Of a stretch of DNA of 64,000 nucleotides, positions 6,500 to 15,055 are shown piece after piece (position 1 is the first letter of the stretch; the number at the start of each line of letters is the position of its first letter). The DNA comes from a virus. The DNA lies in IMG/VR virus record IMGVR_UViG_3300028388_001496, positions 15,317-79,316 of that record, one strand, 5' to 3'. The notes under the pieces are model-generated. The model was not told the origin of the DNA. It made no database searches and saw nothing but the letters and a program-made list of their open reading frames with translations. A program made the translations under genes and the position numbers.

Positions 6500-6771
6500 T
6501 GGATATTTTGCTACTTATTTTAGTTCTGCTTATTATCGGCTACCTAGTATATCGAAGGTTTTTTGAAAAAACCAAAGAGATCAATGGAATCGCTATAATT
6601 AACGATCAAGTTGTTTTAAAAATAGGAGGTACAAACAAAGAAAAACTCGAACAGGGTGATTTATTTCTGGGTATGGAGGGTGAATTTTTTGTTGTTGGAG
6701 AGTTAGAATCTAATCCCAAAGCATCAAACAAGTATGCTTATTACATAAGAAACAAAAAGAATACAAAATGA
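6499..6771 (+). CDS. Small membrane-anchored protein
   Basis: N-terminal TM (ILLLILVLLIIGYLVY) followed by RR; LEQGDLFLG domain. Confidence 0.6.
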   Translation: MDILLLILVLLIIGYLVYRRFFEKTKEINGIAIINDQVVLKIGGTNKEKLEQGDLFLGMEGEFFVVGELESNPKASNKYAYYIRNKKNTK

Positions 6772-8804
6772 AAAAGATTTTATTTTTTCTATTAATGCTA
6801 GTTGGATTTTCGCTTTCTGCTCAAGTCCATACTTTAACTGGTATTATATTTAGAAATGGACCTCCTAACGCTAGTACTAGTAATCTTGATGAGTTTTTAT
6901 TAGTACGTCCTACTGGTCAAGTTCGTTCTTTAGATCTTGCCAGTCTTGCTGCTCGTATTAATGCTGAATTGCCTGCTGGTAATTTTACTCAAGAAGAGAT
7001 TGAAGATTTTATTGCTGCAATGATTACAACTGGTACTCAAACTAATATTGTAATTACTTATGATGATGTAAATAGTCAATTAGATTTTGTAGTAAACGCA
7101 CCAGGATTAGATACAGAAGAAGTTGAAGATGTTGTAGGAGGATTGTTAGTAGGAGGAACTGGAGTAACAGCTACTTATAATGATGTTGCTGGTACTCTTA
7201 CAGTTGCTTTGTCAGGTGCTGAATTTACTACTCTTGATGAAACAAAATTAGATGGTATCGAAGCAGCAGCTACAGCAGATCAAACAGGAGCTGAAATTAA
7301 AGTATTATATGAAGCAGAAGCTAACACAAATGCTTATGATGATGCAGCAGTTGCTAAGTTAGCCGGTATAGAAGATAATGCTACAGCAGATCAGACTGCA
7401 AGTGAAGTTCCAATTATAGATGCTGGATTACTTATAACTGCAACAGATGTTGAAGGAGCATTACAAGAATTAGCAAATGCTATTGATATTGCTAATAATG
7501 CTGAAGGAGTTAGTTTAGATACTACTAATTTTGATAACATTTTAAGTCCAACAGAAAATAATGTTCAACTTGCTATTGAGGTATTAGAAAATCAAGTAGA
7601 TCAAGATAATCAGACTGCTGCTGAAGTACCAGTTTCTACAGCTAATTTTAATAATAATTTAGGTCCAGGTGATAGTAATGTTCAAGTAGCTTTTGAAACT
7701 CTTGATGATCTAATTGCAGCAGCCGCAGGATCAGGTTCAATTTTTACTTATACAGAAGAACAATGGTTAGCACTTCCGCAAATCACAAGAGATACAGTTA
7801 ACGCCATTGTTGTTGATGTGGTTGGAAATGCTATTCAAGCAGTGGGAGTATCGTACAATAATACTGAATCAGGTCTTACAGCTACAAACGTACAACACGC
7901 TATTGATGAGGTTGATAGTACGCAAGACAGTGTTGTAACTGAGATAGCAATAAATCCAACTTCTTCATTTGATTTTTATACTCTAACTACAAACGCAAAT
8001 GCTTTTACTCCATATTTTGCAGATAACGCTATTGTGTCGTTAGATTATAACGGAGAAACTTTAACAATACCAAAAGATAGTATTGAGCCGGGAGAGGCTA
8101 TCAGAATTGTTTTAGATAGTAATGCTGGCGGTATTGCAAATATTGTTCCAGCAGACTCAGTTTTATTTTTAGGATTTGCTGACGGTCTTTCTCTTGATTC
8201 ATATCCGTCTGGCGTTACTTTAGTAAGAAGAAACTCTACAACTGTTCCAAATAGACAATATATGGTAACTGACTATTTTGGATCAATAACAGCATTAATT
8301 GGAGCTTATGAAAGTAACAACGAATACACTGAAGCATCTGCGGTAAACGCTGATAATTATACAGCTTCTTTAGGAAGTTGGACAGACGAATCTGGGAATT
8401 TAGATGGGCTTACTTTATCTGGAGATGCTCCTGTTACAAATGGCGGTTCAAGCGGTTCTATAAGGTATCAGCACGTTTCAGGTTCCGATTTTGATGGACC
8501 AACACTGATTTACAGCGATCCAATTAATCCGGGAAATGCAATAGAAACAGGAGTTGATTACAAAATTTCATTCTGGTATAAAAGGGTAACAGGTAGTGCA
8601 ACAGCTGATCTTCAATTGTTTATTAACCAATCACCAAATTATTCCGAAACAGTTACAACCAACACAACGGGGACTTGGACATTTTGGGAATCTTCAGTTT
8701 TTCAATTTAACTCAACAACTCCCAGCATAAGAGTTGCAAACAACTTTGGCGAACCCACTGCCGGAGATTTTTATTTCACAAACTTTACACTTGTTAAACA
8801 ATGA
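6768..8804 (+). CDS. Tail-fibre-like protein with Sec signal peptide and C-terminal CBM-like domain
   Basis: MKKILFFLLMLVGFSLSA/Q; KL[DA]GIExxATADQT x2, EE[IV]ED...TY[DN]D x2, [ND]V[QE]xAxxxL x4 fibre repeats; jelly-roll C-terminus. Confidence 0.7.
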   Translation: MKKILFFLLMLVGFSLSAQVHTLTGIIFRNGPPNASTSNLDEFLLVRPTGQVRSLDLASLAARINAELPAGNFTQEEIEDFIAAMITTGTQTNIVITYDDVNSQLDFVVNAPGLDTEEVEDVVGGLLVGGTGVTATYNDVAGTLTVALSGAEFTTLDETKLDGIEAAATADQTGAEIKVLYEAEANTNAYDDAAVAKLAGIEDNATADQTASEVPIIDAGLLITATDVEGALQELANAIDIANNAEGVSLDTTNFDNILSPTENNVQLAIEVLENQVDQDNQTAAEVPVSTANFNNNLGPGDSNVQVAFETLDDLIAAAAGSGSIFTYTEEQWLALPQITRDTVNAIVVDVVGNAIQAVGVSYNNTESGLTATNVQHAIDEVDSTQDSVVTEIAINPTSSFDFYTLTTNANAFTPYFADNAIVSLDYNGETLTIPKDSIEPGEAIRIVLDSNAGGIANIVPADSVLFLGFADGLSLDSYPSGVTLVRRNSTTVPNRQYMVTDYFGSITALIGAYESNNEYTEASAVNADNYTASLGSWTDESGNLDGLTLSGDAPVTNGGSSGSIRYQHVSGSDFDGPTLIYSDPINPGNAIETGVDYKISFWYKRVTGSATADLQLFINQSPNYSETVTTNTTGTWTFWESSVFQFNSTTPSIRVANNFGEPTAGDFYFTNFTLVKQ

Positions 8805-13161: not shown

Positions 13162-14166
13162 ATGAAAAAATTACTCTACATCATAGCGTTAATTTCCTCC
13201 TTTGCATGGAGCCAAGACCCTGTAGTAGTAGGAATAAAAGCCAATGGGCAATACACACAAGTCCTTCAAGGAGGTATTGGTCAAGCCGTTGCCATAGACC
13301 TGCTAAACCCAATCGACAGCCTTGTAACGGCTGCATCTGATTCTTTGTATTTGGAATATACTCACTATCAAACTGGGCTTAATACTGGGCGAAGAAAAAA
13401 CCTTCGCAAGAACAATGGAAGAATTGATTATTTTCCTACCTCTGAAGCTATTCCTCTGAATACTGTTTGGAGAGGAAGAACCGGGGCATCTAATGATACG
13501 CTTGCCATTAATCCATTCAACAATTACAAACTTGTTTTTGATGGACAGACTACTGGTAATGCAGCTTACATCACAGGGCCATACGAAACAATGTATATTG
13601 AAAAGGTAGCCACTGATACTCTACTTGTGGCCGGGGCTAATTTGGTGGAATATACTTACTCCTCTGTAAATCCTTGGCTCATTGACGGGTTTTCTGGGTC
13701 AATAGGGTCTGAGGCCAACACTTCTTATGCCGTAGAAGCAGCTTCTGGTGTTTACATATCCCTTGTCGGGCCATTAGGTGTGACGGAATCTGTTGCCTCT
13801 GACTCCCCAACTGGAGAAGGGGTATATGCTATGGAGTTAACTTCTGACCCAGGGGGTGATGGAGATGGTGATAGGCAAAGAATATTTATTGAAGGGCTTA
13901 CTATTGGGGAGATATATGAATACGAGGTAAGCTATAAAATGGTCACTGGAGCCGGTGGACGGTTTACAATAGCAAACGGAAACGGAGTTAGTATTGAGGA
14001 CACTAGATTTAGTGGCACCACATGGGTAACAGCAACTGGTGAGTTTACATATACAGAAGGAGCAAATAATAATATCCAATGTGTGTTCTATGCTGCTGAT
14101 GCCCCAAGCGGTTTAGCCGGAGATGTTGCTAGATTTCAATTTGACATAAGACTAAAAAATGATTAG
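13162..14166 (+). CDS. Secreted adaptor + CBM-like protein
   Basis: Signal peptide AWS/Q; GLTIGEIYEYEVSYK...TTWVTATGEF CBM4/9-like pattern. Confidence 0.55.
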   Translation: MKKLLYIIALISSFAWSQDPVVVGIKANGQYTQVLQGGIGQAVAIDLLNPIDSLVTAASDSLYLEYTHYQTGLNTGRRKNLRKNNGRIDYFPTSEAIPLNTVWRGRTGASNDTLAINPFNNYKLVFDGQTTGNAAYITGPYETMYIEKVATDTLLVAGANLVEYTYSSVNPWLIDGFSGSIGSEANTSYAVEAASGVYISLVGPLGVTESVASDSPTGEGVYAMELTSDPGGDGDGDRQRIFIEGLTIGEIYEYEVSYKMVTGAGGRFTIANGNGVSIEDTRFSGTTWVTATGEFTYTEGANNNIQCVFYAADAPSGLAGDVARFQFDIRLKND

Positions 14167-15055
14167 AGCTTTATTGTTTTTATTTCTTTTTCCATCTGTC
14201 ATATTTGGACAGGGGTCTATAATTTGGGATACAGACTTTAACTCAATTCAGTGGTCTGTGGATGGTAGCGGAAGAAATGGTGATCCCCAGCTTTGGGAAA
14301 CCAATGGAGCTACTGCCAACCTTGTCGGAAATGCCAGAGAGGGAACGGGTGCTGTTGAACTTCCGATGGAGTCCGACAACGAAAGAAATGAAATGAATGT
14401 AGATGCACTATTTTTTGATGCGTGGAACGAAGAGTTTTGGATAGGTTTTTCATTTAAAATAGTTGAGCCTTTACCGTCTTCAAGATTGTTTATGCAAATT
14501 AGATGTAAAGCTATTGATCCAGATTCCCCTACTGTAAATCCGATTGGATTTAGGCAAGAGTCGCCTGGAAAATGGTATATTCAAACAGCTACTGATCCAA
14601 ATTATTATGATGTTGCTCCTGTTCCATTTGGTGGAGCCGGGTCATATACTGAAAGCAGCAACTTAATAGACTACGTTCAAGGGGAGTGGAACGATGTGGT
14701 AATTTATTGGAAACCAAACTCTGTTGGAAATTCGTCGGATGGAGATGTAAAAATATGGGTTAATGGCGAGGTAATAGTTGATAAGTCCAACACGACAACT
14801 GTTTATAGAAGGTCGGTAGACGGTGTAATTATTGATGATTTTTTTGCTCCTAAGATTGGCCCGTATGCTGGGACTTTGGATAGGGTTGGCGTGTATCATT
14901 ATGATGCTTATAAGGTTTGGAAGGGAGCTGGAGGTACTTACGAAGATGTAAGTCCGCTTGGTTTAAGTCCGGGAGATGTGGGCGGTGGAGGCACACCTGT
15001 AGCCCCAATACAAGGAAATAAAAAAGCAGTTTACAAAGCATTTTACGATAACTAA
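14159..15055 (+). CDS. Secreted polysaccharide lyase-like (jelly-roll, heparin lyase I-like) protein
   Basis: Signal peptide IFG/Q; AREG..AV, RNE, EFWIGFS, GEWNDVV..W, G.VKIWVNG, PKIGPY, YD motifs. Confidence 0.7.
   Translation: MIRALLFLFLFPSVIFGQGSIIWDTDFNSIQWSVDGSGRNGDPQLWETNGATANLVGNAREGTGAVELPMESDNERNEMNVDALFFDAWNEEFWIGFSFKIVEPLPSSRLFMQIRCKAIDPDSPTVNPIGFRQESPGKWYIQTATDPNYYDVAPVPFGGAGSYTESSNLIDYVQGEWNDVVIYWKPNSVGNSSDGDVKIWVNGEVIVDKSNTTTVYRRSVDGVIIDDFFAPKIGPYAGTLDRVGVYHYDAYKVWKGAGGTYEDVSPLGLSPGDVGGGGTPVAPIQGNKKAVYKAFYDN

Follow-up and report, generated by a model that had tools for sequence, protein, structure and literature searches.

A cassette of six genes for predicted exported fibre-like and glycan-enzyme proteins in the fibre slot of a marine crAss-like phage

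The stretch of DNA analysed here (the window, 64,000 nucleotides) comprises bases 15317–79316 of a 79,316-bp IMG/VR virus contig (IMGVR_UViG_3300028388_001496; CheckV completeness 89%), which belongs to an uncultured marine crAss-like phage. In the fibre slot of this genome, directly 5' of holin-like and CHAP endolysin genes, lies a cassette of six consecutive genes, designated P1 to P6, in which fibre-like or carbohydrate-binding module (CBM)-like binders (P1, P3 and P5) alternate with putative glycan enzymes (P2, P4 and P6), giving three two-gene units. All six products start with a predicted Sec leader of the signal peptidase I (SPI) type, and in each of them the residue following the predicted cleavage site (marked by a slash) is a glutamine.

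6768–8804, + strand: P1, 678 aa, fibre shaft and CBM4/9-like jelly roll; leader aa 1–18, nt 6768–6821, LSA/Q19
8801–10888, + strand: P2, 695 aa, beta-helix lyase-like protein with a fibronectin type III (fn3) domain; leader aa 1–16, nt 8801–8848, VFS/Q17
10885–11910, + strand: P3, 341 aa, orphan fibre-associated N-terminal part and CBM4/9-like C-terminal half; leader aa 1–18, nt 10885–10938, IQA/Q19
11895–13160, + strand: P4, 421 aa, (alpha/alpha)6 barrel; leader aa 1–18, nt 11895–11948, GYS/Q19
13162–14166, + strand: P5, 334 aa, CBM4/9-like C-terminal half with a PHROG tail-fibre C-terminus; leader aa 1–17, nt 13162–13212, AWS/Q18
14159–15055, + strand: P6, 298 aa, PL20-like jelly-roll polysaccharide lyase; leader aa 1–17, nt 14159–14209, IFG/Q18

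A preliminary description of this DNA had reported six consecutive open reading frames (ORFs) between 6768 and 15055, all with leaders placing Gln after a small residue, and had seen neither a C-terminal domain of the type IX secretion system (T9SS) nor a lipobox. The ORF list agreed with the first of these statements, and a rule-based script, which together with conservation in homologues was the basis of our leader calls, retrieved all six leaders with sites at positions 17–19. The rules comprised a K/R-containing n-region, an uncharged hydrophobic core, small residues at −1/−3 and Gln at +1. One or two K/R were found among the first residues of every protein, and the best nine-residue Kyte-Doolittle mean was 2.6–3.5. 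Inspection of the leaders revealed no lipobox and no Cys in any of them, and searches of the six proteins with Pfam and NCBIfam models for the folded sorting domain at the C-terminus of T9SS cargo (type A or type B, ∼70–100 aa) gave no match at E-values up to 0.1. The description had also considered that the true starts might lie downstream of the leaders. Each ORF is the longest possible frame and therefore no start is possible upstream, while the tight arrangement of neighbouring genes, with overlaps of 4, 4, 4, 16 and 8 nt or a gap of 1 nt, argues against downstream starts; the starts are thus almost certainly right and the genes translationally coupled.

An ORF scan of the full contig detected no leader with a small-residue/Gln site in any other protein of at least 100 aa; the sole other ORF of that size to be flagged (16607–17260) encodes a membrane-anchored protein with no such site. 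The chance of six leader genes all being adjacent among 60–80 genes is ∼2e-7 to 1e-6, and that of finding Gln at +1 in six of six proteins, with three candidate sites allowed for each, is ∼9e-7. Exposure of Gln and its cyclization to pyroglutamate is typical of Bacteroidota SPI substrates (the Q-rule; PMC10653852). Furthermore, the leader is retained in diverged homologues of P2, P4 and P6 at 26–51% identity, among them the P2 relatives P0013 and P0014, the P4 relatives P0002 and gp34 of phage Ingeline, and at least 15 relatives of P6 (26–51% identity) that align from residue 1–8, i.e. through the leader, and carry MI[KR]-type leaders with Gln. Because Q-rule leaders, their conservation in diverged homologues and the recurrence of such cassettes in unrelated cultured Cellulophaga phages (described below) all point the same way, export of the six proteins by way of the predicted translocation is strongly supported by comparison.

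It might be argued that the leaders are not used for export at all, and that the six proteins assemble in the cytoplasm with an N-terminus that has another role or is removed by a phage protease. This would conform to the established knowledge that, to our knowledge in all studied cases, tailed phages assemble in the cytoplasm. A removal of this kind, by the prohead protease, has been assumed for the leader-like ends of capsid proteins in Porphyromonas gingivalis phages (Matrishin et al., PMC10367356). However, Gln at +1 in all six proteins and in ∼20 further cassette proteins makes sense only with SPI and a periplasmic glutaminyl cyclase, and for fibres there is neither a gene nor a context of the prohead-protease type, which makes this explanation very improbable in comparison with export.

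The type of leader tracks the protein class: MKK is the start of the binders P1, P3 and P5, MIR that of the enzymes P2 and P6, and MI[KR] that of the P6 relatives. This pattern suggests that leaders were inherited with their domains and that duplication or import involved whole two-gene units.

Among the binders, P1 is the most readily recognized. Its classic fibre repeats, which had been noticed previously, match the PHROG tail-fibre family (3.6e-17) and also cyanophage fibres, and residues 73–206 (nt 6984–7385) share 48.6% identity with the shaft of g086 of phi14:2, a crAss-like Cellulophaga phage. The g086 protein (annotated as 'pectate lyase') is a virion fibre verified by mass spectrometry (MS) and its gene has the same location behind the capsid genes as that of P1, but it has no leader and starts with a 147-aa N-terminal part that P1 does not have. 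The C-terminal part of P1 (aa 506–677, nt 8283–8798) is a CBM4/9-like jelly roll, with a weak CBM_4_9 match (0.0016), and is paralogous to aa 357–537 of the phage's own leaderless 919-aa fibre. No sequence homologues were found for P3, whose C-terminal half gave a weak structural lead to a CBM4/9-like fold (Atlas; template modelling (TM) score 0.3–0.43). The C-terminal half of P5 is CBM4/9-like by an Atlas lead only, and its C-terminus matches the PHROG tail-fibre family phrog_16053 (1.4e-5). P3 and P5 have their nearest viral clusters in the Atlas in common, which again is a lead only. Two close Cys pairs that had been reported in the cassette are indeed present, as CNC in P3 (Cys267/269) and as CGTSHC in P2 (Cys284/289). 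All three binders terminate in the last jelly-roll strand and not in a basic tail.

The earlier proposal that glycan enzymes are encoded here is supported for P2, P4 and P6 by sequence comparison and structural models. PDB sequence searches with the three proteins returned nothing beyond the fn3 domain. The body of P2 resembles a right-handed beta-helix lyase, with a below-cutoff DUF5123 match at aa 438–532 and the fn3 domain at aa 570–654 (nt 10508–10762), and its homologue P0015 carries the Pel9A-like beta-helix PF22842. P4 was modelled as an (alpha/alpha)6 barrel spanning aa ∼20–395 (nt 11952–13079) with a predicted TM score (pTM) of 0.77. A Foldseek search with this model was weak (E 0.05), whereas VIA-align gave Z-scores of 17–18 against barrels of the glycoside hydrolase (GH) families GH105, GH76 and GH88, with ∼270–300 residues aligned at 3.5–4.3 Å; as far as the model goes, the fold class can be considered settled by VIA-align, the family being tied between the three. 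Homologues of P4 include Ingeline gp34 (tblastn 3e-19, aligned from residue 4), CDS92 of Maribacter phage Panino, phi12:1 gp51 and phi19:3 gp095.

The lyase domain of P6 (aa 58–250, nt 14330–14908) matches PF14099 with 50.3 bits against a cutoff of 29.9. The P6 model has a predicted local distance difference test (pLDDT) value of 87, with the tail 276–298 below 50, and among solved structures it is closest to the glucuronan lyase 2zzj of polysaccharide lyase (PL) family PL20 (E 4e-12, TM 0.71 by target); lower-ranked matches are generic lectin-like jelly rolls that carry no functional meaning. A search of 1.8 billion representatives yielded 74 relatives of P6, among which three address types can be distinguished. 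In those closest to P6, an SPI leader with Gln precedes the lyase domain, and a linker of the LGLSP type and a tail of 10–15 aa come after it, whereas the bacterial relatives are either lipoproteins (with lipoboxes of the type ..SC(S/A/T)KD..) that stop right after the lyase domain or carriers of a T9SS domain of ∼90 aa. One relative, P0021 (707 aa), is a leaderless natural fusion of P4-like and P6-like domains with a single C-terminal tail, and this architecture suggests that P4-like and P6-like enzymes act on the same substrate.

All three enzymes end in a short basic tail. In P2 a Gly/Pro linker is followed by a lysine-rich tail formed by the last 20 aa (nt 10826–10885), in P4 a disordered linker precedes a lysine-rich tail of 14 aa (nt 13116–13157), and in P6 a Gly/Pro linker leads to a basic tail of 12 aa (nt 15017–15052). 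The models place the tails of P4 and P6 on a disordered Gly/Pro linker. The relatives P0013 of P2 (along with its leader and Gln) and P0002 of P4 (along with its leader) have retained the tail. A basic tail is also found on Ingeline gp34, phi19:3 gp090 and gp095, phi46:3 gp083, the leaderless phi12:1 gp51 and g084 of phi14:2, which is an 86-aa virion protein, and in the Cellulophaga phages a near-invariant version (..NQKLIYWRY) is attached to enzymes with unrelated bodies. Speculatively, the short, basic, strand-like tail may be a docking peptide. The tails could instead be minimal secretion or sorting signals, for instance remnants of the last T9SS strand, by which the enzymes would leave the cell before lysis. 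The P6 family in fact has a tail in place of the ∼90-aa T9SS domain of its bacterial relatives, and some phage-type tails end like the last T9SS strand (e.g. ..KKLIIE). On the other hand, no model of such a C-terminal domain matches, P6 has only 32 residues after the lyase domain as against ∼90 in the T9SS relatives, and the tails are 12–20 aa long, sit on a disordered linker and differ among P2, P4 and P6. Moreover, tails of the same kind occur on phi12:1 gp51, phi14:2 g084 and P0021, which are leaderless and cannot enter the T9SS. We therefore give the secretion signal hardly any credence, in comparison with docking or free release of the enzymes.

Cultured Cellulophaga phages from at least four families have cassettes similar to P1–P6 ahead of their lysis genes. 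In these, three to five consecutive genes for leader + Gln proteins (fibre, pectate-lyase and P4-like) are located directly 5' of the holin/endolysin genes; such cassettes were identified in phi10:1, phi19:1, phi19:3, phi46:3, phi18:3 and Ingeline, and on L011, an uncultured siphovirus-like contig that was the one locus recovered from IMG/VR with the P2 alignment.

phi10:1, gp091–095: leader cassette
phi18:3, gp085–087: leader cassette
phi46:3, gp079–083: leader cassette
phi19:3: gp088, gp089 and gp094 with leader and Gln; gp090 with leader but no Gln
Ingeline, gp31–34: all with leader and Gln; followed by holin-like and other lysis-type genes
L011 (uncultured): three leader genes between the tail genes and an M15 peptidase

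These cassettes resemble the one described here in their run of leader genes, in their mixture of fibre/CBM-like, beta-helix lyase and P4-like proteins and in their position before holin-like/endolysin genes. They differ in belonging to other families (sipho- and podovirus types, in contrast to the crAss-like phage here) and in that, P4 apart, P1–P6 have no detectable sequence similarity to their proteins; the cassette described here is also set apart by the strict binder/enzyme alternation of its six genes and by its Lys-rich tails, which contrast with ..NQKLIYWRY there. Between phi19:1 and phi19:3, two phages of different families with a host strain in common, the cassettes show 97% identity, as would be expected of host-recognition gear. 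Leader cassettes with 92–97% DNA identity are common to phi10:1, phi19:1, phi19:3, phi46:3 and Nekkels, which represent different families on the same or related Cellulophaga strains, and the fibres in these shared cassettes have a conserved leader and an N-module of ∼30 aa with swapped C-terminal domains. In phi19:3 the leader-bearing fibre gp094 is followed by a P4-like partner, gp095, that has no leader (TTG start, no room for one; L006 5710–7789). To judge from its sequence, this pair looks like a recombinant of a leader cassette and the leaderless phi12:1 gp50–gp51 pair, and as only gp094 has a leader, the two products would go to different compartments. Leaders on the lyase proteins of Ingeline and Nekkels have been mentioned before, in a passing sentence that describes them as 'also carrying signaling peptides' and gives no mechanism (Bartlau et al., 2021, PMC8776804). 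The idea that leader-bearing fibres are a general trait of Crassvirales was rejected, since leader-bearing proteins of fibre size were found neither in the phi14:2 region nor in Fpv1 or crAss002.

A link between leader proteins and virions is provided by two of the cultured phages. In RefSeq, seven leader + Gln proteins, namely gp091–094 of phi10:1 and gp085–087 of phi18:3, carry the note 'experimental MS/MS proteomics analysis', and these MS notes reportedly go back to work by Holmfeldt from 2013. In phi10:1 the note is attached to 12 proteins, all of the late structural region, and to none of ∼75 other genes. In phi18:3 the genes of the three leader proteins adjoin the lysis genes, at a distance of 10 kb from the remaining structural genes marked by MS. 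No leaderless fibre gene was found after the tail genes of phi10:1 and L011. Taken together, these observations make it likely that the leader proteins of phi10:1 and phi18:3 are associated with the virion.

The same observations have to be set against a different outcome, in which the exported proteins would never be attached to virions but build up in the periplasm and be freed at lysis as soluble binder–enzyme complexes, i.e. as an extended lysis cassette that dissolves the matrix of capsule or extracellular polysaccharide, lets the progeny escape and strips neighbouring cells. The logic would be that of free phage depolymerases and of LysB of mycobacteriophages. This outcome is favoured by the way in which the cassette abuts the holin-like and CHAP genes and the phi18:3 cassette travels with lysis genes, by the want of a recognizable virion anchor, by phi10:1 gp095, an enzyme-type leader protein that has no MS note, and by the nature of the bacterial P6 relatives, which are surface lipoproteins or T9SS-secreted enzymes. 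However, co-purification with virions was recorded for all seven MS-marked leader proteins of phi10:1 and phi18:3, in which endolysins and other late soluble proteins are without an MS note, the fibre shaft of P1 is hard to explain in the partner of a free enzyme, and neither phi10:1 nor L011 has another fibre candidate. On balance we regard free complexes as a serious but rather unlikely explanation.

The reading we prefer, with a rough probability of 0.5, is that the cassette is a mobile, exported host-glycan module of marine Flavobacteriia phages, situated here in the crAss-like fibre slot, whose fibre-like members are loaded at lysis. Each of its three units would pair a fibre/CBM-like binder with a polysaccharide-degrading enzyme. 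The six Sec preproteins would be cut by SPI before Gln, as the Q-rule predicts, and the exposed Gln would be cyclized to pyroglutamate. Given such translocation and cleavage, the proteins would fold in the infected cell's periplasm, away from the cytoplasm in which heads and tails are assembled. Once the holin-type protein and the CHAP endolysin act, periplasm and cytoplasm would mix, and at least the fibre-like members could then be loaded on finished particles as receptor-binding, capsule-cutting appendages, by analogy with phi10:1 and phi18:3; the enzymes might dock by their short, flexible, basic C-terminal tails or be released free. Hence, host-recognition gear probably matures outside the cytoplasm. 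A general two-compartment assembly in tailed Bacteroidota phages, which would be new for Caudoviricetes, comprising export, pyroglutamate formation, periplasmic folding, pairing through the tails and loading between holin opening and rupture of the outer membrane, is put forward tentatively and somewhat short of even odds. The preliminary description had likewise proposed that fibre parts and glycan enzymes are exported to the periplasm and join virions only at lysis. Its export step is borne out by the leaders, their conservation and their recurrence and its glycan-enzyme reading is upheld for P2, P4 and P6, whereas the joining of virions is argued for indirectly; by analogy with the cultured phages, loading after export is plausible in this phage. 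The alternative given in that description, a glycan-degrading complex that is released, is a less probable candidate.

Several points weigh against the preferred reading. P1–P6 have no BLAST-detectable homology to the seven MS-marked leader proteins, so that the link to virions is one of architecture, and MS detection denotes co-purification, not attachment. P1 has a leader and ∼50 residues in place of the first 147 residues of g086, the presumed anchor, and no known tail-anchor domain was recognized in any of the six proteins. Leaderless fibre candidates (20260–24776) are kept by the same phage, which also speaks for free complexes, and the crAss-like relatives named above have no leader-bearing proteins of fibre size; the leader cassette may thus be accessory in this phage. 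Finally, the Bacteroidota O-glycosylation sequon D-[ST]-[AILVMT] shows no enrichment across P1–P6, with 16 occurrences where 12.3 would be expected.

Periplasmic targeting with neither a T9SS domain nor a lipobox, which would keep the proteins in the envelope until lysis, could also mean that they act before lysis on the infected cell's own envelope, cutting capsule or receptor polysaccharide in transit and thereby blocking superinfection and keeping progeny off debris. Phages of P. gingivalis offer a parallel in Q-rule proteins thought to modify the cell surface (PMC10367356). Yet the six genes are not early genes but part of the late structural–lysis block, tightly coupled to fibre genes, and the fibre/CBM architecture together with MS detection in relatives fits particles better, for which reason we hold such envelope remodelling to be improbable.

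The genes that flank the cassette, and the further fibre candidates of the same phage, are as follows.

6499–6771, + strand: small membrane protein, 90 aa, one N-terminal membrane helix followed by RR..K..K
15067–15393, + strand: multi-helix membrane protein, homologous to phi10:1 gp096 (E 9e-12)
15402–16145, + strand: membrane-anchored protein of the lysis-type block
16117–16548, + strand: CHAP peptidoglycan hydrolase (CHAP 1.1e-8)
16607–17260, + strand: N-terminally anchored protein of the lysis-type block, spanin-like by position only
20260–24776, + strand: leaderless fibre candidates of 919 aa and 373 aa

The membrane-protein gene at 15067 begins 11 nt after the sixth cassette gene, and its homologue gp096 directly follows the leader cassette of phi10:1 in the same manner. 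In the protein encoded at 16607–17260, Bacteroidota O-glycosylation sequons number four where 0.7 would be expected (shuffle p 0.004), an excess consistent with a domain in the periplasm and a role like that of a spanin. At the 5' side, the stop codon of the 6499–6771 gene overlaps the start of P1 (ATGA). The C-domain of its product is predicted to be cytoplasmic and has a weak similarity to the C-domain of the 6089 protein (BLAST E 3e-4, with a very small database). Two Pachyviridae phages likewise encode a small protein with one helix directly 5' of their leader cassettes, as gp084 of phi18:3 (L014 5781–5993) and gp078 of phi46:3 (L009 2145–2357), and there is no sequence similarity among these small proteins. 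Such a protein could be a membrane tether or organizer.

Several known systems share single traits with the cassette. Q-rule secreted proteins are encoded by P. gingivalis phages (Matrishin, 2023, PMC10367356; discussed in PMC10653852). Like P1–P6 they are phage-encoded and have Bacteroidota SPI leaders exposing Gln, but they are products of single prophage genes, have no known function and are thought to modify the host surface, and they are not clustered fibre/enzyme genes of a virion module. Tailed phages also possess Sec-dependent lysis proteins in the form of signal-peptide and signal-arrest-release (SAR) endolysins and of spanins. These too use the host Sec system and are encoded in or next to the lysis cassette; they differ in attacking peptidoglycan or fusing membranes, and they are neither fibre-like nor glycan-binding nor reported in virions. 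PMC7143992 deals with such Sec-dependent lysis proteins. The mosaic adhesive trimer (MAT) fibres of Bdellovibrio resemble phage tail fibres, have a signal peptide with a conserved domain behind it and act outside the cytoplasm (Caulton, 2024, PMC10769870), and thus set a precedent for Sec export of phage-fibre-like trimers. They are, however, bacterial proteins displayed on the predator cell, with no link to a virus particle. Coat proteins of filamentous phages have Sec-type leaders and enter the particle no earlier than at the inner membrane. There the whole particle is extruded through the envelope, whereas here only the appendages of a tailed particle built in the cytoplasm would follow such a path.

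In our searches of the literature, no paper turned up that describes tail fibres of tailed phages routed through Sec. Already known are lysis proteins of phages that depend on Sec, depolymerases in both free and virion-bound form, and the Q-rule genes of P. gingivalis phages; what is added here is a run of six genes in which binders and enzymes strictly alternate, the distinction of three address types among P6 relatives and the conservation of the tails. Should the fibres and depolymerases of Flavobacteriia phages indeed mature in the periplasm, a second assembly compartment would stand beside the textbook cytoplasm. This could explain disulfides, bound Ca2+ and protease-resistant pyroglutamate ends on such appendages, would tie infectivity to host Sec, signal peptidase and glutaminyl cyclase, and would change the prediction and expression of receptor-binding proteins of Bacteroidota phages, including crAss-like ones. 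With phi10:1, phi18:3 and Ingeline in culture and virion MS data in existence, this can be put to the test directly. As candidate tools for attacking acidic polysaccharides of marine origin, the enzymes (PL9-like, PL20-like and a barrel of GH105/88/76 fold, with CBMs) are of interest in their own right.

The contig (GC ∼33%) was assigned to the crAss-like phages on the basis of matches to crAss-type PHROG families for terminase (8e-116), portal (5e-88) and major head protein (3e-84). Its terminase and capsid protein show 32–40% identity to Bacteroides crAss-like phages by tblastn, Flavobacterium phages being more distant, an ORF of 4946 aa occupies the position of the crAss virion RNA polymerase, and the gene order is like that of crAss002, which likewise has a holin and large fibre-type genes between the capsid and tail-tube genes. 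A chimeric contig with host genes was rejected, as crAss-type structural genes flank the cassette on both sides. Megablast of the cassette against cultured phages gave no match, and IMG/VR locus searches with P4 and with the 17254 protein gave no close relatives. Sigma-70 promoter hits in the region stayed at the level of shuffled sequence, and the few terminator-like hairpins marked no operon boundaries. Elsewhere in the window, at 1017–5773, the C-terminal part of the 1017 protein matches g080 and g083 of phi14:2 (E 1e-21 to 1e-25), and the proteins at 3111 and 4367, which resemble leucine-rich repeat (LRR) proteins, are paralogues with 31% identity.

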